Assembly: GCA_030167865.1 (NCBI GenBank)
Contig: JALAGF010000383.1
Coordinates: 110,480 to 130,479 of the forward strand
Direction of reading: 5' to 3'
Length of the DNA: 20,000 nucleotides
DNA from: Craspedostauros australis
Lineage: Eukaryota
The position numbers were made by a program, and so were the translations under genes. Positions 1 through 17,563 of this stretch are shown piece by piece; the first letter of the stretch is position 1; every line of letters starts with the position of its first letter. The notes beneath the pieces were generated by a model that saw only the letters and a program-made list of their open reading frames with translations, ran no database searches and had not been told where the DNA came from.

Positions 1-1334
1 TCCGTGGTCGTCTTCATCTTTGCCTTCGCCACCTCCAGCAATGCTTCCCGCATAGCGGCAGATCGCCTCGCATCCTCTTCGCAGTCGTTGGCCAATGACA
101 AGGGCTCAAGCACACGCCACACATCCATTTCGCCATCCTTCGTCCAGTAGCCGTACACGTCCTCCCATGTCAAAGCATCGGCCCCGATGCTATTGACGAA
201 CTCTTTGTACTTGCGACGCAGCGGGCCTGCTGCCATCTTCGATCGAAAAAGCAACGAGACAGGCTGGGGACACGCGCATCCCCGTGCTGTGTTCACACTC
301 TTGCAGATCAAACCAGAACTGCGCACCTTCGTGTCATCTTGGGTCTCATCTTCTTGTCTCAACGATGGGCCGCACTCGGCTGTTGCTATTGGCTTGAAGG
401 AGAGCAATGCAAATCCGCGGGACATTTTCGTGGTTGGGTCTTTGGGCCGCATGGCCTCGAACACGGTGGGCAGATCTACCCAATGGACGCCGTACTTGAA
501 TCTGGCCGTGTCAAGGATGAGGACCTTGTCTGAGACTTCATCGTATGCTGCAATGGGAGAAAAGTGACCGCTCCCTGTCTGACCAAGTACCTTGCGAGAG
601 TAGGAAGCAACCAGCAGCTGCGTCGGTCCAGTTTGCTCCGCGCTTTGCTCGCGGTCTGCGAGGTCATCCGACGACTCGGTGCAAGCAATTCTTACCGCCT
701 GTCGGAAATCATCCAGCTGGTCATCGCTGTTGCAGTGCGTCGCATCGACGGAGAGGCCCTGGCACTGAGCCAAGCAGACGAAATCTTTGAGCGTGATCCC
801 AGTCTTCGCCACATCTTCCAGATCTAAACAGCAGTTCAGCATCCCCTCATGATACCACCGCCACGGCCCTTTCCACGTTTGGCGGGGGTCCACCGCCAGG
901 GCATTCAGCACAACGACCAAGGTGGAGATGCCGCAGAAGGCGGGCTCGGACTGCGTCGTGAATTGCTCCATCAATGGGAAGTACGACTTCAGCCCATTCG
1001 TTTGCAACGCGGACGCAAAAATGGACCTGCCCGCAGGCGATGTAAATGCCGTGCACGTTTCCGGCAGTGGACGCTTGTAAAAGGAGACACCGGCTTTGGG
1101 GCGGTTCACCTTGGCCTTCACAGCATCTGCGTCAGTATCGGCACCTGTTCGATTGACGAGAGCTGCGACTTGCTTGCGAGAAGGACACCGCCCTGCTGGT
1201 CCTCGCATTGAGGACGGCAGGCTGCTGACACCAAGTGACAAGCAACCTTGCATGACGAGCGTGAACAACAGCAGCAGCGGTGTGGAAAGGTGAATCAGTA
1301 CCAAAAACGATGCGCCACGCTGCCTTTGGGTCAT
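1..1334 (-). CDS. PCS: Phytochelatin synthase (glutathione gamma-glutamylcysteinyltransferase), 3' end beyond the window edge
   Basis: Manual minus-strand translation from ATG at 1334 is open to position 1. It reads MTQRQRGASFLVLIHLSTPLLLLFTLVMQGCLSLG...SFYKRPLPETC...YFPLMEQFTTQSEPAFCGISTLVVVLNALAVDPRQTWKGPWRWYHEGMLNCC...GITLKDFVCLAQCQG...SYSRKVLGQTGSGHFSPIAAYDEVSDKVLILDTARFKYGVHWVDL. These are the hallmark PCS motifs, with catalytic Cys (933-935), His (564-566) and Asp (510-512). It is missing from the ORF track because there is no stop codon in the window. Confidence 0.95.
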   Translation of the reverse strand, partial: MTQRQRGASFLVLIHLSTPLLLLFTLVMQGCLSLGVSSLPSSMRGPAGRCPSRKQVAALVNRTGADTDADAVKAKVNRPKAGVSFYKRPLPETCTAFTSPAGRSIFASALQTNGLKSYFPLMEQFTTQSEPAFCGISTLVVVLNALAVDPRQTWKGPWRWYHEGMLNCCLDLEDVAKTGITLKDFVCLAQCQGLSVDATHCNSDDQLDDFRQAVRIACTESSDDLADREQSAEQTGPTQLLVASYSRKVLGQTGSGHFSPIAAYDEVSDKVLILDTARFKYGVHWVDLPTVFEAMRPKDPTTKMSRGFALLSFKPIATAECGPSLRQEDETQDDTKVRSSGLICKSVNTARGCACPQPVSLLFRSKMAAGPLRRKYKEFVNSIGADALTWEDVYGYWTKDGEMDVWRVLEPLSLANDCEEDARRSAAMREALLEVAKAKMKTTT

Positions 1335-1629
1335 TCGATGGGGATGGCGGTTCGTTTTGTTGAAGGAGAGAGTAGTCTGTTGTTGATGGAAGTCCTCGTG
1401 GTGCACGAGTACTCGTACGAGAATGTAGGTGTGGAGGATGGTCGAGTAGTTATAGTGTTACGAGTGATCCACGGACAGGACGGTGTTGCATCATTCAATC
1501 CTGGTGGGTGCCATCATCTTCGATCACCAATGACCGTGTCTCTGCTTGGCAGGTTTCCTTGTTGGGCACAGGTTTGGTGGTTGGCTCGTCTTGGATGCGA
1601 TGGGATGGGCGCGGAACAACGTTCGTTGT

Positions 1630-2080: not shown

Positions 2081-2542
2081 CAGCAAAAGCACTACCATCA
2101 CTACCATCGCTGCCGTCACTGCCAAATCATTTTCCACATCAAGATACGAGCCGTTCTTGCACTTGGTGGACATACAAGCACATACTAGCACATGCGAGCG
2201 CTCTTGCCCTTCCTCTTTCTGGAACTCGCACTCCGTCCATACAGTACAAGGAATGTTTCATGTAAATTGATTGTCTCCATCATCCCTCAAAGAACGAACG
2301 CTTCATTCCAAGACACAATCAAAGACTACCGACACATCATCAAGCACGCAGGGAACAGAAGCATCGAAAACACGTCTTCATTCGATATCCTCCAATCTCC
2401 ATCCTCCTCTTAACCATTCAATCAAGCATCTGCTGGGTCAATCATCCATCGAACCACCCCTCCACCCCTCGATCAACCCAGCATTATCAAGCTCGGCTAC
2501 ATCCACGAACAAGCCGGCATCGTTCGAACCAACCACACCGAC

Positions 2543-3766
2543 ATGATGGGCAAGTTATGTTTATTCGTTGGCTTCCTTTGGCTGAATGCAAGCCATATGA
2601 TCGTCGCTGCAACACCCAAAGCAAACGAGAATGAGCATGCAGTAATGAGGCCTTTCCAAACGCCTCAGCCTGCGGGACATGCCAAATCCAATTTGATCGC
2701 CGATGAATTCATAAAAAAGCGAGCCCTTTCCGATTCCGATGACACGGCTTCGCCGCTCGCAGGGCCTGCGCCACAGACACCGCCGGATGGGGGAGGACCC
2801 AACAACACAACAAGCGGCTGCATCGATGTGGGATTTGGGTGTATCGATGCCTCCGAACGGTCATCATCATTCTCCTGGGATGATATTGACCGCCAGAGTG
2901 CAGACGAAGAGGGAGATGGGAATCCTTCGCGTTTGGCGAAACGCCCCAAGGACCTGGAACTGTTCCTGATAGGTCTGTTTATCTTCGCAGCCATGTGGCT
3001 CCTCATCGCGATCATCTACTCGCTCCTTCTCTTGCTCGTGCTTCACATGCAGGCTCATGGGCAGCTGGATATCTACGACGATGATTTCGGCACCTTTCGG
3101 TTCTGCGGAGGCCGCTTGCGCATTCGCATGGGATGCATCCTTCGCCGGTACGCCATCCAACTGGACTTGAACGACCAGCAGCGCAGACAGCCACATCAAG
3201 AGGGACAACCAAGCACCATCCGAATCATGACTAGGCACGAACGACGCAATGCGATCGATGCTCTGCTGCAGGCTTGCGTTTCAGAGTCGGCGGAAGAACC
3301 TTCAATCGAAAAGCCGCGATCTCCTGCGAAGTCAACATCTCGGGAAAGTGCACACAGCGATGCCTCAGCTGGACATGCCTCGGTGGCAAGCGAATGCACG
3401 TGTGCCATATGCTTGTCGGGATATGAAACTGGGGATAAAGTGTACAAGTCGAGCACGTGTTCTCATCACTTCCATCACGAGTGCATTCTGGACTGGCTGC
3501 AACGTCGAGCGAACAGCCAATGCCCCTGTTGCCGCAAGGATCTTGTCGACGAGGAAGAGGTTTGGCAGCACGTGAAGCAGACCCGAAAAAAGCTCCGCAA
3601 ACAATCGCAGGGCGAAGCAGTTGGCCTCAAGGCGAAGCTTGCAAGATGGTTCCTTGGGCGATCGGATGACCAGTCGCTGGTAAGCGAATCGGTGGAAGGT
3701 GAAAACACTGACAGCAGCGACCACGACGAAAGCGATCTTGAGATAGGGAACTCTTCTGGTCGCTGA
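2543..3766 (+). CDS. Membrane-anchored RING-H2 (C3H2C3) E3 ubiquitin ligase, ATL-like architecture
   Basis: 407-aa intronless ORF. It has an N-terminal signal-like segment (MMGKLCLFVGFLWLNASHMIVA) and one long hydrophobic helix (LFLIGLFIFAAMWLLIAIIYSLLLLLVL). The RING-H2 motif CAICLSGY...CSHHFHHECILDWL...CPCCR lies at ~3401-3535. Confidence 0.9.
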   Translation: MMGKLCLFVGFLWLNASHMIVAATPKANENEHAVMRPFQTPQPAGHAKSNLIADEFIKKRALSDSDDTASPLAGPAPQTPPDGGGPNNTTSGCIDVGFGCIDASERSSSFSWDDIDRQSADEEGDGNPSRLAKRPKDLELFLIGLFIFAAMWLLIAIIYSLLLLLVLHMQAHGQLDIYDDDFGTFRFCGGRLRIRMGCILRRYAIQLDLNDQQRRQPHQEGQPSTIRIMTRHERRNAIDALLQACVSESAEEPSIEKPRSPAKSTSRESAHSDASAGHASVASECTCAICLSGYETGDKVYKSSTCSHHFHHECILDWLQRRANSQCPCCRKDLVDEEEVWQHVKQTRKKLRKQSQGEAVGLKAKLARWFLGRSDDQSLVSESVEGENTDSSDHDESDLEIGNSSGR

Positions 3767-4232: not shown

Positions 4233-5021
4233 CTACCAATTCTCGACGCTTGGGCGTACGTCTAGTTCGAACGTCCAGCATGACTTTGGCTGGCATGCGA
4301 CGTTCCAGTAGGTGTTGGCGATCGCATTGGGGTCAATCTTGGTCTCGTCAGAATCATCCTTGCCGATGCCACCGTCGATGATGAAGTATCCGACATGGAC
4401 GCCCTTGGGTCCCAGATCTCGCGCCAACGACTGTGCCAGCAAGCGTTGCGCGCCTTTCGCAGGGGCAAAGCCAGCCGAGAAGGGCTTGCCACGAAGGGAA
4501 GCCGTTGCGCCTGTCACCAGGAACGTACCTGCTCCACGTTCCACCATGGCTGGCGCGATGGCCTGGGCAGTCTTCAGCAGACCATGGACGTTGGTTTTCA
4601 TGCTCTGGTCGAAGCGATCCAAATCAATCTTGTCGTAGGTGTTCCAAACTCCGTTGCCAGCATTGTAGATGCAAGTGTTGATGGGCCCGAGATCCTTCTT
4701 GATGCTGGCAACGGCTGCCTCGATATCTTCAGGCTTGGTGACATCGCAAGCGTACCCCGTTGCGCTCGGCATCGAGGATTCCGCCGCCTTCAGCTTGTCA
4801 ATGGAACGGGCAAGGATGGCGACCTTGTACCCTTCTGACGCCCATTTTGCTGCACACGCAGCGCCCAAGCCTGGGCCGTATCCGAAGATCACGCAGACTT
4901 TCTGTGCTGCACCTGTCGCCATGGCTCTTGAATTTGACAAACACAGAAGGAGCAGTAGCGCAATGAGAATATTTGTTGCTCGCGTAGACCTTACGATGTT
5001 GAGAGGTGCCAGCGATTTCAT
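4233..5021 (-). CDS. Short-chain dehydrogenase/reductase (atypical, FxxxK instead of YxxxK)
   Basis: Contains the Rossmann motif VIFGYGPGLG, YNAG, VTGATASLRG and FAPAKGAQRLLAQSLARDLGPKGVHV...IIDGGI, ending in WTFELDVRP. The most plausible start is ATG 5021 (MKSLAPL..., followed by a hydrophobic signal-like stretch); ATG 4922 is an alternative. The track's start at 5219 probably includes UTR. Confidence 0.9.
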   Translation of the reverse strand: MKSLAPLNIVRSTRATNILIALLLLLCLSNSRAMATGAAQKVCVIFGYGPGLGAACAAKWASEGYKVAILARSIDKLKAAESSMPSATGYACDVTKPEDIEAAVASIKKDLGPINTCIYNAGNGVWNTYDKIDLDRFDQSMKTNVHGLLKTAQAIAPAMVERGAGTFLVTGATASLRGKPFSAGFAPAKGAQRLLAQSLARDLGPKGVHVGYFIIDGGIGKDDSDETKIDPNAIANTYWNVACQPKSCWTFELDVRPSVENW

Positions 5022-5622
5022 CCGTCGGTCGGAGGTTGTGTGATTATGACTCAAAGGCGACGATGAGAGAGGATGCGGATGAATAGTACTGTGCAGCCAG
5101 GCAACTGCGCGTACCTCATGTTTCTCATCACGTTGCTGTTGCTGGCATCTCCCCGAAGATCCTTTGTGTTCTTTTTCGTTCTTGACGCTGGATCTCTCCG
5201 TCTCGAAAGATACCGACACAGAATCGCTGTTTTGTGGACAAGATGCACGCGGAGTGTGCGCAGACAGGGCAGTAACAGGAAAAGGAAAGCGTGGTGGCGG
5301 AAAGCAGCTCGTAGCCGATTGTCGCTGTCGGTCACACCAACGACGGGCGGAGGATCTTCGACAGTCGTGCGCAAAGTCTACTAACAGAGAGTGCCGCAGC
5401 TCGTACTACTACACATACGACGAACCATCGCCTGTGCAGTACCAAGAGTCTCTTTTCATCCGAAGATACCCACCCTAACCGTTGTTGGTGTTGCATCCGA
5501 AGCAACCGACACCAGCAGAAAATCTCACCCCACACCAACATCTTGATCATCAGGCAACATCAGTACTGTACTAGTGGCGTAGATGGTAGAGAAGAATTGG
5601 CGACTGCGCGTACGGATGAAGC

Positions 5623-6897
5623 ATGATGAATCCATTCAAGCCGCATTGGGATCTTTACCCCAAGACGTACACAGCTCCAAAAGCACCGACCTCCTTCCTG
5701 GATCAGCTCAACGGGGATTTGACCAAGCCTGCGTGGGCATCGGTGCCGTGGTCTGACGATTTTGACGATATCCGCGGAGTGGAAGATGCGCCGCAAGCGG
5801 AACGACCGTCGCCATCCTGCCGCACGCGTTTCAAAGCCATGTGGGACGACACCCATCTGTACTTCGGCGCATTGGTGGAATCGGACTTCGAAACGCAAGC
5901 CCACTTCACCGAGCGGAACTCGCCGATCTATCAGAAAGATTCCGACTTTGAGATCTTCGTCGACCCCATCGGAAGCTGTCACCACTACAAGGAATTTGAA
6001 GTGAATGCCATCAATACGGTCTGGAACCTCATGCTGGACAAACCGTACGGCGACGGCGGCAGGGAGTTTTCGGGGCGAGTTGCCAAGCCTGGGGAAGAGC
6101 AGTACTACGAGGTTTACAATCAACGAAGTGCCACCAAAGTGGTCAAAGGTCGCTTGAACAGCCCCGGCCAAGGGGCGACGTGGTCTGTGGAAGTCGCGAT
6201 GTCCTTTGACGACTTACTCAAGGATGAGTTTCTCGAGGATCACGTCGGAGATACGAGCATTGGCTCCACCACCACTCCAGCAGCTGATGACGGCGCACAC
6301 TCACGCATCAGTCCACCACCTCCACGGGCTGGCACAATGCTGAGGGTGAATTTCAGCCGGGTGGAACATCAGGGTGATACCAACTGGACATGGCAACCGC
6401 AGATTGTATGGGACCCAACACGGAGTAGATACGGCGGGTTCATTCAGATGCACTTCCCGGATGCCTGGGGATACCTTGTCCTTGGTGATAGTAGTGACGA
6501 GGGCGAACGTGCGTTGCAATCGAACGGAACGGGTCGTCTGGATCTTACAATCGCGAACAATGGCGATTCGAACGGAAACGCTGGTGCGACCGTCCGTGAT
6601 CCTAGTTGGCCAGCAAGATTGGCTGCGATGAATGTCTACTATGCCCAGCACGCCCACCGTGATGCCGAAGGAGTATTCGCGTCGACGATGCAGCAGCTCG
6701 CGCCATTCGTTGATCGCAATGTGACGGAGCCGTTCAGCATCCGGCTGTCGACACAGTCGCCATCGTCGTCGGAGCCATCCAGTGATCACTTCTCCGCGGT
6801 GATATCAAGCGAGCACCTGAATTGTGAGGTCTCCATCACGGACGATCGACATGTGCAAGTCCAAAACGAGGCAACAGATGTTTCCGATGCGAGATAA
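5623..6897 (+). CDS. Carbohydrate-binding family 9-like (CBM9/DOMON-like) protein
   Basis: 424-aa intronless ORF with an in-frame TGA just upstream (5617-5619). Motifs LNGDL..PAW, RFKAMWDDTHLYF, DSDFEIFVDP, YKEFEVNAINTVWNLMLDKPY.DGG, WSVEVAM, RVNFSRVE, NWTWQPQ and MHFPDAWGY match the CBM9-like family as recalled from bacteria. Confidence 0.8.
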   Translation: MMNPFKPHWDLYPKTYTAPKAPTSFLDQLNGDLTKPAWASVPWSDDFDDIRGVEDAPQAERPSPSCRTRFKAMWDDTHLYFGALVESDFETQAHFTERNSPIYQKDSDFEIFVDPIGSCHHYKEFEVNAINTVWNLMLDKPYGDGGREFSGRVAKPGEEQYYEVYNQRSATKVVKGRLNSPGQGATWSVEVAMSFDDLLKDEFLEDHVGDTSIGSTTTPAADDGAHSRISPPPPRAGTMLRVNFSRVEHQGDTNWTWQPQIVWDPTRSRYGGFIQMHFPDAWGYLVLGDSSDEGERALQSNGTGRLDLTIANNGDSNGNAGATVRDPSWPARLAAMNVYYAQHAHRDAEGVFASTMQQLAPFVDRNVTEPFSIRLSTQSPSSSEPSSDHFSAVISSEHLNCEVSITDDRHVQVQNEATDVSDAR

Positions 6898-7398: not shown

Positions 7399-7634
7399 GT
7401 TGTTGTTGTTGTCGTTGCGTTGTCGTTGCTGTTGTTTTGGATCCTGTCTTCTCTTGTGGTCATGAGCGGAACCGCGGCGAAGAGCGCTGTTGGCCGAGTT
7501 GTAGCAGTTCCCGACACAAGAGAGAGGATCAGGTTGATTTCGAACATTGGGAAGTGCGATACACCATTGCACGAAATCAGCACGAGCAATAGCAATACCA
7601 AAAGTAAGAGCAAGAGAGAAAAAGAACGTCAAAG

Positions 7635-9738
7635 ATGGTTGACAAGAAGGCAGAAGCGAAGAAGGAAGACAAGGGGGCTGCAGGCGCAGCCGACAACTCG
7701 CCATCGTCATCGGGAGACAGCAAGGAGGCATCGGCCGCCGCAAAGAAACTGCCTCCACTGATCGCCGCGTCCCGGCGTTTGGATGCGCAGCTCGGCGGTG
7801 GGTTGGCCGCGAAGGATAGAGCGCTGTACTCTTACATCAACCCAGTCAAGGTGCTGCGGCGATGGCTGGGCATGGCCTCTGGCGCATCCTCGAGCTGCGC
7901 CTTGGGTGATATCGCGAAGGCCGCTGAGAGCTTGCTGGACCCAGAAGGTCCCTGCAAGGCTGGCCGCAACTTGCTGCTCGGATTCGCAGCGCCGGAGAGC
8001 GACAAAGCCGAATCCATGGAGGTCGATGACGCAGCTCCTTCGAAGGATGGCGAAGCGGAGGCACCCGCTTTCCTGTCTCTGTCGTCGGCAAGAGAGATCG
8101 AGGGTTGGCTGATCAGCCTGGCAGTGCGCTTGCTCATCAAGGACAAGAAGTACAGCGAGGCCATGGAGCTGTCGCAGAAGGGAATCGCGATCACACACAA
8201 GCACATCCAGGCATCGTCAAGCCAGCTGACCGCCAAGAACGGATTCTCCGCGAACTCGCTGTTCCCAGGACTTGCCCGGCTGTACAGATACAGGTCGTTG
8301 GTGTCGGAACTGCTCAATGACCCCAGTCTTGCCGCCGATCTCCGACAGGACTTGGTCAAGGCTCACAACATGGCCTGTCTTCGTCGTGATGTCGACTCCC
8401 AGTCGACGTTGCTGAATCTCATGCTGAGGGACTACCTGTTGCATGACCAAGGTACGTGACATGGTGTTTATCACAACACGGAGATTTGCGTCGCGATGCC
8501 TTTCCCTCGCGTTGCAGCTAGGTCTCCATGCCTTCCATCTCGTGTGACATGAAACGATGCGATGTGTTGTGTTGTGACGATGTGGCGTGACATGACGGAA
8601 CGCAAGTGTTTCCTCACTCCGCAGAATACCATCGTTAGTGATAGTATTCGGTTGAGTGCGGGTCCATCGTATTGTTAGATCAGAGATGCAAGCCATCGCC
8701 ATGGATGCTCCGCTGCAGAATGCGCCGATGAAAGAGATCTGAACCACATTTATATGGCCGGCTACGAAGAAACGAACAAACCTCACGAAGGTGGCCTCAT
8801 GCACTCACTCGCTCACTCAATCTCGCCGCTCCTTCCACTTTCCCGACCGCTCGACCGATCGCCCTGCTTTAACCGCTACGTTTCATTCCATTCCATTAAA
8901 TTCCATTTCATACCCAGTCGAACAAGCGCACAAGCTCCTGACGAATTCGACCTTCCCCGACTCCGCGTCGAACAATCAGCTCTGCCGTTACCTGTACAAC
9001 AGCGGCCGAATCCACGCGCTGAGACTCGAGTACACCAAAGCATTCTCCAGCCTCTCCCAGTCGTTGCGGAAGGCGCCCAGCAACACAGGGTTGGGATTCC
9101 GCATCGAAGTGCAGCGCTTGCTGATTGTGGTGCAATTGCTGATGGGCGAGATCCCGGATCGGCATCTTTTCTTCACCGAAGGCATGAAAACAGAGCTGGC
9201 TCCGTACCTTCGTATCACGCAGGCTGTTCGCAAGGGAGACCTGAAGACGTTCACGGCTGTCGTGTCTGAAAATGCTCCTCGCCTTCAAAAGGACCGCACT
9301 TACACGCTCATCTCGCGTCTTGCTCATCAGGTCGTGAAGGCAGGATTGCGCAAGCTGCACATCAGCTATTCCCGAATGTCGTTGCAGGACGTTGCCGATC
9401 GTTTGGGACTTCCTTCTGCAACTTCGGCTGAATTTGTGGTGGCAAAGGCCGTTCGCGACGGTGTGCTGGATGCCACGATCCACCACGAGGAGGGGTACAT
9501 GCAGAGCCACGACCTCGTCGATGTCTACGCCACGCAGGAACCGGCAGAGGCATTCCACAGACGTATCGCGTACTGCTTGACAACGCACAACGACGCCGTC
9601 CGAGCCATGCGCTATCCGCCAGATGAGTACAAGCGTCAGCTGGAGGCCAGCCGCGGGAACCGTGGCAAGAGCAGCGACGACAAGACCGACGAGGAGAAGG
9701 CAAGAGAATTAGAGGATGAGATGGATGATGACTACTAA
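7635..9738 (+). CDS. RPN3: 26S proteasome regulatory (lid) subunit RPN3/PSMD3; exons 7635-8451 and 8918-9738, 545 aa
   Basis: Splicing joins ...LLNLMLRDYLLHDQ-V-EQAHKLL... in frame. The PCI domain and Rpn3 C-terminus are clear: SNNQLCRYLYNSGRIHALRLEY, VVQLLMGEIPDR, ISYSRMSLQDVA, AEFVVAKAVRDGVLDATI, DVYATQEPAEAFHRRIAYCLTTHNDAVRAMRYP. Confidence 0.96.
8452..8917 (+). other. Spliceosomal intron of RPN3 (466 bp, phase 1)
   Basis: Donor G|GTACGT, pyrimidine-rich 3' end and acceptor CCCAG|TC. Removal restores the conserved reading frame. Confidence 0.93.
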
Positions 9739-9973: not shown

Positions 9974-11083
9974 TCAAGTTTGTTCTCGATGGTAAATCCA
10001 GACGGGCGCCCCCCTCCAGGCATTCTTTGTCCACGACATTTCCACATGCTCCATCTCCGGTTTTTGGAATCCCATCCGGTTCTCTGTGTTACGCATACGA
10101 GTCTCCAAAGGTCCATTCCGATACTGGTGGGCTGAATTTTCTGCGCATGGAATATTCTCAGCGTCACCAGCAAATTCACCACCGGGGTTGGGCACGCCTC
10201 GGAGCTGATTTGGGAATGGCCGAAGTGATGCGATGCACTTGAGGTTTGGACAATCACGCCAACCGTCCTCGCACAGTTTTTCCTCCAGCTGACGCAGAAC
10301 GTCAGACGGGAAGCACAGCGACGAAACGAAGAGATGTGTGGTTTGCGATAAATCTGCATCGACCAAATCGCCCTCCACAAATCCGATCGTCCTGTGCTTT
10401 GCATATTGGTGGCCTTCCAGGTTCGCGATGATGCTGTGAAATGAACGCAACTCCTCGCTGCGCCTCAGTCGACCCCATGCCTGCACCGCCTGCGCATGCC
10501 GGCTGGCAACGAGCTCGATACCTCGGCTATCCCTCAAATGCGGTATCTCCAAGTACGCCTGGACCACCAGCTTTCCAACGCCAGATCCCATGTCCATAAA
10601 GTTGACTTCGTCAGATGCCGACTGCGCATGAGATGAATAGAGTCCCATATGATGAAATAGCTGCCTGGCGCCGGTGGTCGTCACTTCACCGTACGTGAAT
10701 CTAGTTTGGTGATCTCGGAACGGATCGGAAAAAACTGATTCTGCAGAATAGGAAGACTCGTATTGGTCAGAGCGCGTTGCCAATCTGCTGTCGCATCCAG
10801 CGCCTGTGCCGCTCGCAGTGCCAGTACTACTTGCAGTTGTAGTGACAACGCCAGGAGCAGGGCCATCGATCCCATCGCCATACCCGGCATCGTCCACCCA
10901 GAATGGTTCGGCTCCATTTCCACGTTGCGGTTGGAAGATGAGATCGATGCAACGTCGGGAGCGGTACACGTCCCAGCTCGATGGGATCGGTTCCGCGCAG
11001 GGTAGATGGGAATCAATCACGTCGGGCGGCAGAAGGATGATCGATCCCACAACCTGCGACAACCAACCGGAGAAGCATAGCAT
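9974..11083 (-). CDS. DOT1-like class I SAM-dependent methyltransferase (H3K79 methyltransferase family)
   Basis: 369-aa ORF with TYGEV, motif I FMDMGSGVGKLVVQA, GIELVASRH, FVEGDL and THLFVSSLCF. These follow the DOT1 catalytic-domain order YGE / DLGSG.G / GIE / GDF / F.N..F. Confidence 0.75.
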   Translation of the reverse strand: MLCFSGWLSQVVGSIILLPPDVIDSHLPCAEPIPSSWDVYRSRRCIDLIFQPQRGNGAEPFWVDDAGYGDGIDGPAPGVVTTTASSTGTASGTGAGCDSRLATRSDQYESSYSAESVFSDPFRDHQTRFTYGEVTTTGARQLFHHMGLYSSHAQSASDEVNFMDMGSGVGKLVVQAYLEIPHLRDSRGIELVASRHAQAVQAWGRLRRSEELRSFHSIIANLEGHQYAKHRTIGFVEGDLVDADLSQTTHLFVSSLCFPSDVLRQLEEKLCEDGWRDCPNLKCIASLRPFPNQLRGVPNPGGEFAGDAENIPCAENSAHQYRNGPLETRMRNTENRMGFQKPEMEHVEMSWTKNAWRGAPVWIYHREQT

Positions 11084-11875
11084 GGGATTGTATCACCGTT
11101 GCTCTTCAGCTCTTCTGTTGCTCTGCTTTTCTCTCCTCTGCGAGTACTAGTGTGGACACTGTCTCTTCGTTCTTGCGTCGTTCTGCGTCACGTTGTGGGA
11201 TGGCCTCCTTAGTATGTGACATCTATGTATCCGATGTAAAGTATGGTATGATGCCATGGAAGTATAATAATATAGCACGACCTGGAGAGAAGGAAAGCTC
11301 GAACGATGCGGGCTCATCGGCAGAGCATGGTGTCATCATCGTATCTTCTGTGTGGGTGTCGGCACCAGATTGTCCAGCACCGAATGTGTCATCGTCGATG
11401 GTTTGATCGGACGAGTCATCCGCAACCCGAATATGCATCCGACAGACAGACTTCGCGCCAAAACGCCTCCGCGAACGTGTTGGGACTTCGCTGGCTCGAA
11501 TTCTGGCGATTGTCTCGCGAACCAAAACAGAAGCGTTTCACACAAAAACGCTGCGCCCACAAAACCACGCTCTTCCGAGAAAGCTTGTTGTCAAAGTTCA
11601 TGACAAAGCATCGCCAACGAGATGACAACCAACCAGATACGCAAACCACATCAAATCACATTTCTCCATTCTACTCTCCTGCACTCTCCAAAGTGGAGCC
11701 AACTGAACTCCATTCATCTCAATTCCACTCCGCAAAGACAATACCGAATACAACAACATCCCCAAGAGGCAACTTCCTGATCCAAATCACCGCCGTTCAG
11801 AGGATCACCCATACAGTTACCTGAGCGTACTATACACCCTGCTGCTGAATTCCAATTGAAATCGAGTCTGGGACA

Positions 11876-14800
11876 ATGAAGTTCTGCTACTGTGTGGTGC
11901 ACGGGAGAGAACTGGGGATCTTCTTCTCATGGGATGAGACCAAGAAGCATGTGATTGGCTTCTCGAACGCCTCGTACCAAGGATGCGAGACGCTCTCCGA
12001 AGCCAAGGCGTACATGCGGCTGTGCGGGATGGTCCCACGAAAGGAGGTCAAGGCGGATCAAACGCCTGCCGCGGACGAAGGCTTGTTGTCGTCAAAGGGT
12101 TGGACGACGCGCATCCTTTACGTTGATGCGGCACCCAGAAGCACCACGCGGGGGTCATCGTCGCCTTACTTTCAAGCCAAGCAGGACAACAAGCGAACGC
12201 ATGAAGAAATCATCTCCATTTGTTCCTCCGATAAGGAAGATCAACCCAGCACAACCGCCACCAAAAGTCGTCGAAAGACCAATGGCGTTGCAACACGAGT
12301 GCAACCTCGCCGCGGTGCCAAGGCAACGCCGTGCGATGAGTCAAGCCATCCCAAGAATGAAGGTTGCGGTGCCACTGGCACAGCCACTGCTCGCATCTCT
12401 GCTAGTAACAGAAAGAGCGAAAGTGATTCTCCAACCATCAACAATCGCAGCAGCAGCAGCAGCAGTCCATGTGGCAAGTCAAAGAACAACAACTTTGCGA
12501 AGAATGAGGCGGATCGCCACCCCAGCAACGAATATGTCGACAACGATCTTTACCTCGACGACTACGACAATGATTATCATCACGAGCACGACCATGAGCA
12601 TGACCATGGGCACCACGATGATCATGACGATGAGGACGAACGACACGATGATCATGAAGACTACTGTGGCTACGAACAGGATGTCTACGAACAGGCTGAA
12701 TACGAACGAGACTGCGACGAACGACATGCTGAGGAGCAGCATGCGCAAGAACAGTATGACTACGAACAGGATGCCTACGAACATGAGGAGTACGAACGAG
12801 AATGCGATGAACGACGTGCCGAAGAGCAGGATGCCTACGAACAGGATGATTACAGACGACGGCGCGAAGAAGAGTACGCACTCGATCCTGTCCAACAACT
12901 CGCCGTAGACGCCGCCTTGGAGGGCAAGAACATTTTCCTCACTGGCCTTGCCGGCACAGGAAAGTCATTGGTGACGAAAATCATCGTTCAGAATGCACAA
13001 AGCCAGAATCGTCAAGTCGCCGTGGCTGCTCCCACTGGAGTCGCAGCCGTCAACCTCGGCTTGGGTGCGCAGACCCTGCATTCCCTTGCTGGTGTCCGTG
13101 TGCCGCAACGAGCTCGTGATTTCGGTAAGTTGCAGATGATTGTCGTGTTGTGTCATGGTGGGGATGGGATGCTTGGACAAATACATAGGAGGCCATGTTA
13201 GTTTTCTTCTTCACTGTCCCCCCTCCCCTATCGGAGGTGCATGCCATCTCGCTTTTCTTCGGTTCTTCGTCCAACGCATGCATGCATGTATACAAGCGAG
13301 CAGGTCAAGCAGAAGACGATGGAGAAGACAAACGACCGACAGAACGGAACGAGAGACAACAGAGCACCCGTGGATGCGTATCATTTGACCTTCGTTGACG
13401 CAGCTACTGTGTTCTCGAGAAGCACGTTGCCACTCAACTCTATGCTCTCCTCCACACGCTGCCATGCTCTGCTGGCAATAAGATGTGGCTCGCCTCCCCT
13501 CTTGGTTCTCACCTTCCGACTGTCAATTCTCTTCGTTTTCTGCCGTGATTTTCCGTGCTGTTGCTCGCGCTCATGCTTGCTTTGTTACATTTTGATACAC
13601 CGTACCACACCAAACAATGCCATGCCATGCCATATCATACCATGACGCATTCCACTTTCTCACACCGTCTACCAGGCACGATGCATGGCTGGGAGAATTC
13701 AAAGAAATGGAGGCAGATGGAAGTCTTGGTGATCGATGAGATTGGTATGGTGAAGGCCGACTTTCTCGACTTTCTGGATGTGACGGTGCGAAACATTCGT
13801 CACAGACCGCATGCTCCATTTGGTGGCATTCAACTGATCTTCGTCGGTGACTTCGCTCAGCTCGGTCCGGTGCCTGGATCGCTTTCTCTGCGTCGTGATC
13901 ACGCTTACAAACCAGGGGAGGATGGCGCAGATTGCTTCCTTGAAGTGCAGGATTGCACAGCGTACGCATTCCAAAGCGCGTGCTGGCGAGAAGCAAACTT
14001 CCACCACATCCGCCTGAACAAAGTGTTCCGCCAAGCCGACATGGATTTTGTGGCGGCGCTGACTGATTTGCGCGAGTCGAGGTCCGGATCCGATCGCGTC
14101 AGCCGGATGATCAAGGATTGCGCCAAGCCGCTGGCGAGAAGGAAGGACTTGAAAATCCCGGAGGGCATCGAGCCGACCATACTGTACTGCACCAACGCCA
14201 AGGTCGACAGACAGAATTCGGATGCCCTTCGGTCACTGAATACCGAGAGACAAGTGTACAAGGCGGTGGATACCACCAGCGTGGACGACGAAGTCCGCCC
14301 AGGCTACGCGGATTCCATGAAGCGGACGCTCACGAAAGACAAGTTCTTCGAGCAGTGTCAGGCCTCCAAGCACTTGGAATTGAAGCTCGGTGCCCAGGTG
14401 ATGCTGCTGCAGAACTTCAGCCAACTGGGTCTCGTCAATGGCAGCCGTGGCGTCGTCGAATCCTTCGAGCCTTGTCCCGTGGCGGTGGATGTGAGTGGAG
14501 AAGAGAATTTGATCCGCCCCGACGATCACGAGAAGTTCGAAGGACGCATGTTCGAGAAGATCAAGATCGGGATGCAGCTCCGCTTCGATGACAAGGTGTG
14601 GACGGTGAAACGATTCAAGAAGTTCCCCCTCGTCAAATTTCTGAATGGACAGCAGCAGATCATGGTCCCTAGCAACTTCGAGCGGACCATGTACAGGAAG
14701 GGCGTGTGCCGCAGGACACAGATTCCGTTGCGGCTGGCGTGGGCGTTGACGGTTCACAAGTCGCAGGGTTCGACATTGGATTTGGTCGTGGCGGATCTAA

Positions 14801-15939
14801 AGGGCTGCTTCTCTCCTGGTCAAGCGTACGTGGCGCTGAGCCGTGCCAAGTCGAAAGAAGGACTGCAGATCCGCAACTTCAGCAAGACCACGGTCCTGAC
14901 AGACCGGCTGGTGGAAGGGTTCTATCAGGCCGTGGATGATGGCGGTATGGCGAAATTCCTCAAAGAACAAGCTGGCATCTGGTGGTTCCCTGTCCTGAAG
15001 CACGCGGACTGGCTCACCATGTTCCAACGTGCATCGAGCGCCGAAGGCAAGGCGAGCGCGAAACAGTTTTGCCACTGGCTCTCCAAATACAAGCCGAAGG
15101 CGAGCTACAAAGGTTGGTGTGGGTACAAACGCAGCTTCGTGTCGTATTCAGGCCCCTCCTCCAAGCCTGTCACTCCATCGCCCTTGAGGCAGAAGGCGTC
15201 CACAAGAACCACCCACGCAACGACGACCGCAGGAGATGACAGTGACGGTTCTGATGGCTGGAAGCAGCTGAAGCTGACCTTCGGCGCAGGTGCGGGCAGT
15301 GCGTGCAAGTATGGAGGCAGCGGTGGCTTCGTCAAGGCTTCGACGCTGTTGCAGCGCAACGCCACTCACGCCAGCGGTTCAAAGAAGGCGACGAAGTCTG
15401 TAAGCGGCCAATCCTTGAAGAGCAAGACAGTCGACACGCAGAAAAAGAGGACGTTGCCGTCGTACGCTGACATCATGAGCATCCCCGACGACCTCAGCAG
15501 TCTCGATGGGTGTGGTGATGGCTTCGGCAACGACAGCAGCAATCCGGCTCCCAAGCCAATCAAGGCACCAAGGCCAAGCAAGAAGGTGATGGAAAGCGTC
15601 AACGTGCTCACTCCGGACACAACCAATGCCAATGCCAGCGACCAGAGCGGGGAGGACGAAGCCGAGGATGAGTGCGACAATTCAGAATTGATTGGAGTCT
15701 TTGATGAGCTTGGCGAGCTCTATCGGTTGCAAGGCAATGCGCACGCCGCCAACACGTATCGGAAGGTGTGCTCAGCTCTCGAGACGCTCGATTACACCAT
15801 CACCTTGAAGAACGCGAAGGCGCTCGGAGGCAAGAGCAAGGTGCCAGGCATTGGCAAGACGACGGTGCAGAAGATCGTCGAGTTCCTTCGAACAGGCACG
15901 ATGGCGAAGCTCGCAGAGAAACGAGCGCTGGACTTGTAG
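11876..15939 (+). CDS. PIF1: PIF1-family 5'-3' DNA helicase with N-terminal RNase H1-type hybrid-binding domain and C-terminal Pol X 8-kDa HhH domain; exons 11876-13124 and 13676-15939, 1170 aa
   Basis: Exon 1 has Walker A NIFLTGLAGTGKS, APTGVAAVN and GAQTLHS. Exon 2 has LVIDEIGMV, PFGGIQLIFVGDFAQLGPV, LNKVFRQAD, LKLGAQVMLLQN...GLVNGSRGVV, RTQIPLRLAWALTVHKSQGSTLD and GQAYVALSRA. The splice RDFG|TMHGW joins the two ORFs in frame. Confidence 0.95.
12671..12853 (+). repeat. Coding tandem duplication (90-bp period) in the acidic/His-rich linker of PIF1
   Basis: TACGAACAGGATG at 12671 and 12761. It encodes YEQDVYEQAEYERDCDERHAEEQ / YEQDAYEHEEYERECDERRAEEQ / DAYEQDDY. Confidence 0.85.
13125..13675 (+). 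other. Spliceosomal intron of PIF1 (551 bp, phase 1)
   Basis: Donor G|GTAAGT and acceptor ACCAG|GC. It separates the helicase motif Ia/Ib region from Walker B, and removal restores the frame. Confidence 0.92.
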
Positions 15940-16391
15940 CGTCCAAAAGAAAAGGGAGGTGGCAGTGAACAACCATGGCAGAACGCTGGGAGTGTAGCAG
16001 AGTTGATGTCGACGACACAACATGGATCGTATCGTATTGTACGAATGTACGAAGAAGTATTATATAATATAATATATCAATAGTGTGGAATGTGGAGTAT
16101 TGTAATGCAGAATACAAAGTCAAAGTCTTGTAACAACATATTGCAAAATGCCACGTTGGTACAGTGTTAAGCCGAGCAGCCAACTAGGTTCCTCGTTGTA
16201 GCTCGTGCTTGTGTTTGGTTTGTGTGGGTTCGCATTCCAGTCTCATCGAGTTCTCTTCGAAAGGGGCTGCGTGGAAATCCATATTACTTTGATTGAACTT
16301 GTGAAAAATAGCCTAACTTCGAAGCAGTACTGTGTTGTTCGAATCAACTGACCCACCGACTTTTCCGATTCGATCGAATAAATCTTCGATT

Positions 16392-16616: not shown

Positions 16617-17563
16617 ATGGATACTGTTCTCGGAATCGTATACGATGGTGGCGGTGAGTGTTTGGGCATGCCCGAGTGTGTGCAGGTTGCGACGGATGTC
16701 CTTGATGCTGCTGCTTCTCTTGCCTGGGTACGACCTCTCTGTGCGTCTTGTCGGAAGGAGCAAGATACGAAATTTTGTGTTGGTGGGGATGGAAGTGGGC
16801 ACGATGGCGAATGGCACGCCAAGGGGTGGTGCGTTGGGGCAGCAACCACGCAGCCACCTTCTTGATGATGGCGCTCCAGACTGATGCAACAAACTGGTAC
16901 AGCATCAAAGTAACTCATCCGAATTGCCTGAACATATTTGCACCCTCTTTTGTTTGCGTGACGGCATCCGCGATTTCGTGCTGGCGACGAGCAGTCATTA
17001 TCGCCGCCGACCAATCCAATGGCAGATCCATTCTGACCTACCAGACGAACCTCGACAAGATCAAGCCGTTGACATCGCATTCCATGATGGGGGTATCGGG
17101 ACCGAACTGTGATTTGGTCAACTTCACTGAATACGTCGCAAAGAACATCAGCCTGTACGAGCTGTCGAATGATGGCACGAAGCTTTCGACCCACGCGCAG
17201 GCGAACTTTTGCCGGCTGGAGCTGGCGACCGCGCTCCGCAAGGGTCCGTACCAGGTGAACATCCTGCTTGCCGGGTACGACGAGAAAACCAAGTCCAGCA
17301 GCCTCTACTACCTGGACTACATGGGGACGTTGCACAAGGTTCCGCACGGATCCCAAGGCTATGCCACATACTTTTGCAGTTCGATTTTCGACAAGGAGTA
17401 CAGAGAGGGCATGACCGAGGAGGAGGCGGTGAAGGCGATCGGATACTGCATCCAGGAAATACAAACTCGCTTCATGATCTCGCAGCCAAATTTCATCATC
17501 AAGAAGGTTGACAAAGACGGTGTATCAGTCCTGTCCTTTGGGTCAGATCCAGCAGACTCGTAA
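16617..17563 (+). CDS. PSMB2: 20S proteasome subunit beta type-2 (beta4; PSMB2/PRE1); exons 16617-16653 and 16995-17563, 201 aa
   Basis: The spliced product is MDTVLGIVYDGG-V-IIAADQSNGRSILTYQTNLDKI...DLVNFTEYVAKNISLYEL...ANFCRLELATALRKGPYQVNILLAGYD...LYYLDYMGTLHKVPHGSQGY...CIQEIQTRF...KKVDKDG. This is typical of the non-catalytic beta4 subunit, with no propeptide or Thr1. Confidence 0.95.
16654..16994 (+). other. Spliceosomal intron of PSMB2 (341 bp, phase 1)
   Basis: Donor G|GTGAGT and acceptor AGCAG|TC. Removal yields the conserved N-terminus. Confidence 0.92.

Follow-up and report, generated by a model that had tools for sequence, protein, structure and literature searches.

We analysed a 20,000-nucleotide stretch of Craspedostauros australis DNA (assembly GCA_030167865.1, contig JALAGF010000383.1, positions 110,480 to 130,479 of the forward strand), hereafter the window, in which a PIF1-family helicase gene spans positions 11876-15939 on the plus strand. 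The gene consists of two exons, and its spliced translation is a protein of 1170 amino acids with one terminal stop. A domain resembling the hybrid-binding domain (HBD) of RNase H1 was found at the N-terminus and a domain resembling the 8-kDa domain of X-family polymerases (Pfam HHH_8) at the C-terminus, with the helicase core between them. The features of the gene are as follows.

11876-11878 (+): start codon, the first ATG after an in-frame stop; its open reading frame (ORF) opens at 11849.
11876..13124 (+): exon 1, residues 1-416 and base 1 of codon 417, carrying the HBD, the linkers and the N-terminal PIF1 core.
11876..12016 (+): RNase H1-type HBD-like domain, residues 1-47 (Pfam Cauli_VI match 5-46).
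12017..12520 (+): basic Ser/Thr-rich linker, residues 48-215; K+R 17%, S+T 24%, net charge +11; no Pfam match.
12521..12880 (+): acidic His-rich linker, residues 216-335; D+E 43%, H 12%, net charge -42.
12670-12853 (+): two tandem copies of a 90-nt repeat within the acidic linker (Tandem Repeats Finder, 82% matches).
12881..13123 (+): N-terminal part of the PIF1 core, residues 336-416; Pfam PIF1, AAA_19 and AAA_30 (residues 336-409).
12944-12967 (+): Walker A motif GLAGTGKS, residues 357-364.
13125..13675 (+): intron of 551 nt, GT...AG, phase 1, in the helicase core between motifs Ia and II.
13676..15939 (+): exon 2, residues 417-1170 and the stop codon (15937-15939).
13678..14946 (+): C-terminal part of the PIF1 core, residues 418-840; Pfam PIF1 and Pif1_2B_dom, alignment to 7otj and 5o6b.
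14353-14463 (+): 2B/SH3 domain (Pif1_2B_dom, E 2.8e-11).
14947..15141 (+): Trp-rich segment after the core, residues 841-905, conserved in diatom PIF1 relatives.
15142..15672 (+): C-terminal low-complexity linker, residues 906-1082; S+T 24%; no Pfam match.
15673..15936 (+): stand-alone X-family polymerase 8-kDa-like domain (HHH_8), residues 1083-1170.
15871-15873 (+): K1149, the equivalent of Lys72 of Pol beta by alignment to 1bno.

The two exons lie in long ORFs in different frames, 11849-13201 for exon 1 and 13549-15939 for exon 2, and unspliced read-through from exon 1 is ended by a stop at 13199-13201. The HBD and Walker A were found in the first uninterrupted ORF, and motifs II-VI and HHH_8 in the other. 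Both reading frames stay open, over 416 codons in exon 1 and 754 in exon 2, and no helicase motif is missing. When the spliced protein was aligned with P0072, P0073, P0011, P0004, P0002, P0003 and P0001, the junction (...RARDFG / TMHGWENSKKW...) was free of gaps, and the relatives aligned there (P0072, P0073, P0011, P0004 and others) have ORFs uninterrupted at that site. The BLAST high-scoring segment pair with P0072 covered residues 335-597 in 263 columns. Since the sole splice sits inside the core and is gap-free against the intron-less relatives, one chain must, judging from these alignments, carry the HBD, the PIF1 core and HHH_8, unless the helicase is broken, which nothing suggests. At the 3' end, the stop codon lies 12 residues past the Pfam HHH_8 match, and relatives end 3-15 residues past the domain.

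The helicase core was complete (residues ~336-840). Pfam PIF1 (PF05970) matched both exons, with an E-value of 1.6e-14 on exon 2, where UvrD_C_2 also matched. The exon 2 part of the core aligned to the solved PIF1 structures 7otj (E 3.9e-50), 5o6b (E 1.5e-48) and 6hph (E 2.4e-42). We observed Walker A (GLAGTGKS, 357-364) and Walker B (VIDE, with D437 and E438). The Pif1 signature motif and motif III (GDFAQLGPV, of the GDxxQLxPV type) were also present, as DFLDFLDVTVRNIR...PFGGIQLIFVGDFAQLGPV, residue-for-residue with 7otj and yeast Pif1 (5o6b). The C-terminal motifs V and VI were found in LAWALTVHKSQGSTLD, aligned to the Pif1 structures, with HKSQG in the core. The E-values of these and the following domain matches are far beyond chance. 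Read from its sequence, the gene is an intact nuclear gene encoding a PIF1-family 5'->3' superfamily 1B (SF1B) DNA helicase, whose unwinding activity is predicted.

The N-terminal domain matched Pfam Cauli_VI (PF01693, Ribonuclease H1 N-terminal domain) over residues 5-46 with an E-value of 2.2e-10 and 41.1 bits against a cut-off of 21. It also matched the solved hybrid-binding domains of yeast (1qhk, E 2.9e-5) and human (3bsu, E 5.2e-4) RNase H1. AlphaFold2 models of both end domains were built on alignments of relatives. The HBD model had a predicted local distance difference test (pLDDT) value of 83.6, and Foldseek superposed it on 3bsu with a target-normalised template modelling (TM) score of 0.90, a root-mean-square deviation (rmsd) of about 1 Å and 33-35% identity; no unrelated structure scored below E = 1 in the Foldseek search with this model. 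Y29, W43 and F58 of human RNase H1 contact DNA, and Y5, W19 and Y34 of the window protein align to them, so that the aromatics are kept. The numbering was taken from the alignment to 3bsu and 1qhk and from W43 and KK59/60 as named in PMC10639055, which states that W43A and KK59/60AA abolish hybrid binding by human RNase H1. Among 18 PIF1-linked HBDs, the W43 equivalent was W in 14 and the K59 equivalent was K or R in 12. The commonest pattern at the KK59/60 site was A-x-[FY]-x-G-F, the last position of which is C in the window protein. P0004 and P0061, from Nitzschia inconspicua and a relative, have Arg at the W43 position; hybrid binding may therefore be lost in that lineage, with the fold still kept.

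The C-terminal domain matched HHH_8 (PF14716) over residues 1083-1158 (666-741 of exon 2), covering positions 1-72 of the 73 in the profile, with an E-value of 2.2e-15 and 57.2 bits against a cut-off of 30. Searches against structures returned Thermus PolX (E 2.7e-6), the 8-kDa domain of Pol beta (1bno, E 7e-5) and also Pol lambda, and the best solved relatives of the family profile were Pol beta (E 2.6e-10) and the Pol lambda 8-kDa domain (E 2.9e-9). The AlphaFold2 model (pLDDT 93.8, predicted TM score 0.83) has five helices and was superposed by Foldseek on Thermus PolX and human Pol beta with query-normalised TM scores of 0.73-0.78 and an rmsd of about 2 Å. The helix-hairpin-helix hairpin PGIGK is present, its second Gly being kept in 124 of 125 family members. 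When the gene was scanned with Pfam, no DNA_pol_B_palm or thumb match was found after HHH_8; that is, the fingers, palm and thumb of a whole X-family polymerase were not found.

The lyase pocket of Pol beta comprises Glu26, Ser30, His34, Lys35, Tyr39, Lys68 and Lys72, the last of which is the Schiff-base nucleophile (PMC2241857). We read the corresponding residues of the window protein from a HMMER alignment to 1bno. K1149 and Y1111 were the equivalents of Lys72 and Tyr39, and the His34 equivalent was also kept as H. The Thr67-equivalent position was K, next to the Thr that replaces Lys68, and a 4-residue deletion was observed over the loop bearing Ser30. Of the 125 family members, 96 have K at the Lys72 position, 108 have Y at that of Tyr39, 102 have K at that of Thr67 and 86 have A at that of Lys35. 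In the seven PIF1-linked HHH_8 domains, the Lys72 equivalent was K in six and R in one (P0001), and the Tyr39 equivalent was Y in all seven.

These results bear on an initial annotation, made from the sequence and its ORFs, which had proposed a 1170-aa protein with a 13124/13676 junction and four parts, namely a hybrid-binding domain, a basic and then acidic linker, a PIF1 core and a Pol beta-like 8-kDa domain. The gene model was reproduced exactly by the spliced translation and by the gap-free junction against relatives. All four parts were present: the Pfam scan returned Cauli_VI, PIF1 and HHH_8 above their curated cut-offs, and the composition accounted for the linker. Furthermore, the matches that had been claimed for the two ends hold at the level of both sequence and fold, by Pfam together with superposition on 3bsu for the first part and on Pol beta and PolX for the fourth. 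The activities that the annotation had proposed, namely recognition of a hybrid and cleaning of a 5' end, are predictions from these domains.

The remaining segments showed features of their own. The 90-nt repeat in the acidic linker encodes a doubled 30-aa acidic block (YEQD.YE..EYER.CDER.AEEQ), and a His/Asp repeat with a period of 12/24 nt was observed at 12584-12639. The Trp-rich segment, with the approximate consensus GLWWYPIL...WL.MFQ...W...YKP..GY.GW.GY, extends past the part that aligns with solved Pif1 structures, and no Pfam family covers it. The linker at residues 906-1082 was poorly conserved, and its length varies among relatives.

A word-indexed search with exon 2 gave 4047 matches among 8000 scored candidates, and domains were counted on the best 120. 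The best matches were from raphid pennate diatoms (Cylindrotheca, Nitzschia and Pseudo-nitzschia) with 52-57% identity, and no protein identical to that of the window was found among the matches listed. In the precomputed Pfam annotation of the best 120 of 4047, Cauli_VI occurred with PIF1 in 15 and HHH_8 in four (P0001 and P0012-P0014). These four HHH_8 bearers (P0001, P0012, P0013 and P0014) are all cut at the N-terminus and are hence uninformative about the HBD. HHH_8 was also found with PIF1 in P0188 and P0289. A local phmmer comparison showed that 16 of 134 gathered proteins match the window HBD. The named records with HBD and PIF1 came from Nitzschia inconspicua, three Picozoa data sets, Pycnococcus provasolii and Pseudoscourfieldia marina, and were annotated at source merely as 'ATP-dependent DNA helicase PIF1'. 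By these sequence matches, HBD-PIF1 fusions occur in diatoms, Picozoa and prasinophytes, and PIF1-HHH_8 in a small diatom-like group; relatives keep the same domain order as the window protein.

The fragments among these relatives were complementary. In the N-terminal fragments P0072, P0073 and P0087, which carry the HBD and the first half of PIF1, similarity stops after window residue 597, and the C-terminal fragments P0012 and P0014, which carry the second half of PIF1 and HHH_8, start at window residue 598. That the fragments meet at 597/598 points to an intron there in the source organisms, the gene having been split by a prokaryote-style gene caller. Furthermore, P0072 and P0289 (the C-terminal end of PIF1 with HHH_8) were both recorded on two JGI contigs, the longest being 28,330 bp. 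Taken together, these records suggest that the three-domain gene exists in other species, as good circumstantial evidence and not as proof. Intron positions differed: P0072, P0073, P0011 and others lack the intron that the window gene has at residue 417, between motifs Ia and II, and have one after motif IV (597/598), where the window gene is uninterrupted. An in-frame read-through insertion was seen within motif III of P0087.

In a tree of 103 near-complete cores, the window protein was sister to P0001, a PIF1-HHH_8 protein, with a support of 0.70, and both fell inside a 10-tip clade with named diatom records (support 0.81). A metagenome scan with alignment A1 confirmed no locus; with P0072 as the query, the sole match was a relative (L001) of 35% identity. 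Matches in the ESM Atlas were generic PIF1 clusters only, all with scores under 0.9. Other accessory domains were observed on protist and algal PIF1s among the matches listed, namely zf-CCHC (about 11, green-algal or related), BRCT (four), G-patch (three) and SAP with RING (one). Decoration of PIF1 looks common outside animals and fungi, as far as these database sequences indicate.

The HHH_8 domain was also traced outside the PIF1 family. When residues 1081-1170 were compared by phmmer with 1.84 billion cluster representatives, 269 proteins matched at E <= 1e-3 and 81 at E <= 1e-10. In the best 150 of the 269, the domain was mostly at the extreme C-terminus, and only P0014 and P0188 were PIF1-linked. 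A word-based search with the same region returned only bacterial PolX, with E-values of ~2e-3 to 9e-3. The Pfam scan covered 70 of 149 new representatives, mainly those longer than about 280 aa, the 79 left out being mostly shorter fragments. In these 70, zf-PARP was found at the N-terminus of 16, Zn_ribbon_Top1 in three, PNK3P (PNK 3'-phosphatase) in one, two to four tandem copies of HHH_8 in seven, a true PolX with palm and thumb in two, and PIF1 in none. A profile search with alignment A2 listed 71 matches, with zf-PARP in 44 and PIF1 in none, although relatives can be crowded out of such a search. The window domain was 52% identical over 84 residues to P0159 (Seminavis) and 38-55% identical across the A2 profile matches.

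Proteins with zf-PARP and HHH_8 were found in the pennates Epithemia, Nitzschia, Amphora, Cylindrotheca, Seminavis, Fistulifera, Pseudo-nitzschia and Mayamaea, and also in MMETSP entries with names beginning Leptoc..., Dacty... and Cosc..., which we take to be the centric genera Leptocylindrus, Dactyliosolen and Coscinodiscus. The members of this diatom-wide family (P0159, P0342, P0351, P0365, P0371, P0378 and others) are about 450-500 aa long with a long domain-free middle, and are named at source hypothetical, 'PARP-type domain-containing' or 'poly ADP-ribose polymerase'. Judged by its domains, the family is a candidate for a so far uncharacterised factor in nick or gap repair. P0278 and 11 members of its cluster, from marine assemblies, have PNK3P fused to a C-terminal HHH_8 in 375 aa. 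In P0135, P0137, P0161, P0199, P0250, P0262 and P0264, two to four tandem HHH_8 copies were observed, and neither a polymerase nor any other catalytic domain; P0137 occurs in both NCBI and Tara sources. In the domain tree, whose rooting is arbitrary, the seven PIF1-linked HHH_8 domains fell in one clade of 10 out of 126 tips with a support of 0.76, which fits one capture of the module by a PIF1 gene. The sharing of the module with diatom PARP-type finger proteins and a PNK phosphatase points to nick and gap repair, and suggests for the helicase a setting in single-strand-break or gap repair.

With moderate confidence, we consider the end domains to be targeting tethers that would concentrate the PIF1 motor on replication or repair intermediates. 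The catalytic core would be joined by two long disordered linkers to two small readers of nucleic-acid structure. At a nick or gap, the 8-kDa-like domain would bind the downstream strand by its 5' end, the role that it has in X-family polymerases, and the HBD-like domain would settle on an RNA:DNA or other A-form-like duplex. The PIF1 motor would load on a 5' single-stranded end and, moving 5'->3', clear the template of RNA or of the downstream strand. This activity could serve in flap generation, in the removal of R-loops or primers, or in long-patch repair. Such a mechanism would fit the activities known for Pif1, which unwinds RNA:DNA hybrids and acts in Okazaki-fragment flap processing (PMC8998199).

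Several findings weigh against this tether mechanism or against the generality of the architecture. In the HBD, Q35 and G36 of the window protein replace the K59/K60 pair of human RNase H1, and the K60 equivalent is K or R in none of the 18 PIF1-linked HBDs (G in 12, S in five and V in one). In HHH_8, the lyase pocket is incomplete, with Glu26 replaced by Q, Lys35 by A and Lys68 by T; moreover, the Lys35 equivalent is A in all seven PIF1-linked domains, the Lys68 equivalent is never K, and P0001 has R at Lys72. The three domains occurred together in none of the 120 best PIF1 relatives and in none of the 71 HHH_8 profile matches listed, and the evidence that the three-domain form is conserved consists of complementary fragments and the matching longest contig (28,330 bp). 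Orthologues vary: Cylindrotheca models were without either end domain, and in the PIF1 of N. inconspicua HHH_8 is missing and R occupies the W43 position. The presence of the HBD was not clustered on the core tree, with 11 parsimony changes where shuffling gave 12.4 on average (113 of 1000 shuffles gave a value equal to or below that observed), so that a single ancient fusion is not supported; absences of the HBD on this tree are unreliable, because many gene models are N-terminally cut. Finally, one small run (X1), presumed to be of RNA, gave a 278-nt contig identical to 15748-16025, which crosses the stop codon into the 3' flank, and a 20-nt piece; the intron junction was not reached.

It seems unlikely that the end domains are generic or regulatory modules instead of substrate readers. 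The HBD-like fold might bind double-stranded RNA or another ligand or autoinhibit the motor, and HHH_8 might be a scaffold-like tag for protein-protein contact or oligomerisation that is common to diatom repair proteins. The missing KK59/60 pair would agree with such roles, as would the place of HHH_8 at the extreme C-terminus of unrelated zf-PARP, PNK3P, Zn_ribbon_Top1 and PIF1 proteins and in tandem arrays, in the manner of recruitment tags. Several orthologues also do without one or both end domains, and neither is therefore essential to the core function. However, the family is conserved best at the equivalents of the DNA-contact and catalytic residues of Pol beta (Y39, K41, K72 and the GIG hairpin), the aromatic DNA contacts of the HBD are retained as well, and both folds are solely nucleic-acid binders among the solved matches.

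A related alternative, which we regard as rather improbable, is that HHH_8 is an active 5'-deoxyribose phosphate (5'-dRP) or apurinic/apyrimidinic (AP) lyase and that the protein combines helicase and lyase activities in base-excision or long-patch repair, which corresponds to the 5'-end cleaning suggested in the initial annotation. In its favour, the best solved relatives, Pol beta and Pol lambda, are the two members of the X family that are proficient as lyases, and the equivalents of Lys72, Tyr39 and His34 are present in the window protein, that of Lys72 being K in 96 of the 125 family members. Against this, Lys35 is changed to Ala, Lys68 to Thr and Glu26 to Gln, the Ser30 loop is deleted, and in the sister sequence, P0001, the nucleophile is replaced by Arg. 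The conservation of the lysine would equally fit plain binding of a 5'-phosphate. Lyase chemistry by K1149 is possible, and the 5'-end tether is the role that we prefer for this domain.

The window averages about 53% G+C, and the gene shows no compositional break. Rfam and tRNA scans of the whole window gave no match. The neighbouring ORFs are listed below.

3-1457 (-): phytochelatin synthase.
2414-3763 (+): RING-finger protein.
4233-5402 (-): short-chain dehydrogenase.
5620-6894 (+): CBM9-like ORF, weak.
7608-8456 and 8743-9735 (+): proteasome regulatory subunit Rpn3/PSMD3, two ORFs, which implies an intron.
9974-11089 (-): DOT1-like methyltransferase.
16706-17560 (+): proteasome beta subunit, the next gene downstream of the PIF1 gene.

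These neighbours are ordinary host genes and not mobile-element genes. It is very improbable that the gene is a gene-model artefact, a pseudogene or a mobile-element helicase (a Helitron-like or virus-derived PIF1) with the domains on separate products: PIF1-like helicases are often Helitron-borne in eukaryotes (PMC8788227), but each end domain shares an uninterrupted ORF with part of the helicase core, both ORFs are intact, the neighbours are host genes, relatives have the same domain order, and Pfam gave no match to Rep (HUH) or Helitron_like_N at E<=1 in exon 1 and no other mobile-element domain in the gene. The Helitron, virus and pseudogene readings were rejected on the intact ORFs and motifs, the lack of a Rep domain and the ordinary host neighbours.

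A broader reading, which we put forward tentatively and do not expect to be the likelier outcome, is that diatoms attach HHH_8, as a portable reader of 5' ends and possibly a lyase, to unrelated break-repair proteins. Its carriers would be the PARP-type zinc-finger protein, the PNK 3'-phosphatase, the Top1-type zinc-ribbon proteins and PIF1. The HBD-PIF1-HHH_8 protein would then be a dedicated docking and stripping machine, which would attach to an RNA-containing or damaged downstream strand by its 5' end and strip it 5'->3'. It is debated whether the direct targets of Pif1 in cells include RNA:DNA hybrids themselves or only the G-quadruplexes next to them (PMC8998199). If the portable-reader reading is true, the natural fusion would speak for a direct action of PIF1 in vivo on RNA:DNA hybrids and on gap intermediates. 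The recurrence of the PIF1-HBD fusion in diatoms, Picozoa and prasinophytes is 'Rosetta-stone' evidence for a direct link of PIF1 with hybrids, and it offers a tractable test protein. The C-terminal domain of the window protein would indicate, from its predicted role, that the 8-kDa module of repair polymerases can work without any polymerase, and the occurrence of HHH_8 in several diatom break-repair proteins suggests a lineage-specific organisation of nick and gap repair. The isolated end domains could serve as sensors of hybrids or 5' ends, if their specificities hold up. If they prove to be inert tethers, the finding shrinks to another decorated Pif1.

The initial annotation had also held the architecture to be new. 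This claim stood in part: no description of the HBD-PIF1-HHH_8 architecture was found in the full-text literature, in a search that did not cover the paper of Harman & Manna 2016 on amoebal Pif1s, whereas HBD-PIF1 fusions are already in public databases for several protist lineages and accessory domains on Pif1 are known. Pif1 helicases with accessory domains are a known theme (PMC9964779), as in thermophilic bacteria, with WYL, and reportedly in amoebae. As far as its sequence tells, the HBD-PIF1-HHH_8 combination is a real and uncharacterised member of that theme, its function being predicted only.

Compared with RNase H1, the HBD of the window protein has the same fold but is fused to a helicase and not to an RNase H catalytic domain. 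Compared with the 8-kDa domains of Pol beta and Pol lambda, its C-terminal domain has the same helical fold and GIG hairpin and shares the equivalents of H34, Y39 and K72, but it stands alone at the C-terminus and has lost the equivalents of K35, K68, E26 and S30. Outside the PIF1 group, the HHH_8 domains closest to that of the window were in uncharacterised diatom zf-PARP proteins, such as those of Seminavis robusta, Nitzschia inconspicua, Fistulifera solaris and Cylindrotheca closterium, which carry the zf-PARP nick-sensor-type finger instead of the HBD and PIF1 and have no helicase. With Saccharomyces cerevisiae Pif1 and human PIF1 (5o6b, 6hph), the window protein shares Walker A, motif II, the signature motif, the 2B/SH3 domain and motif VI. 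To these it adds the HBD-like domain, HHH_8, the Trp-rich segment and about 460 residues of low-complexity linker; to our knowledge, both end domains are absent from the canonical yeast and human proteins. The Pif1 of Thermotoga elfii is said, in the preprint 10.1101/163188, to carry a C-terminal WYL domain that binds single-stranded DNA. The WYL domain differs from the end domains described here, but the principle in the T. elfii and amoebal Pif1s is the same as in the window protein, namely a conserved core with an extra nucleic-acid-binding module.

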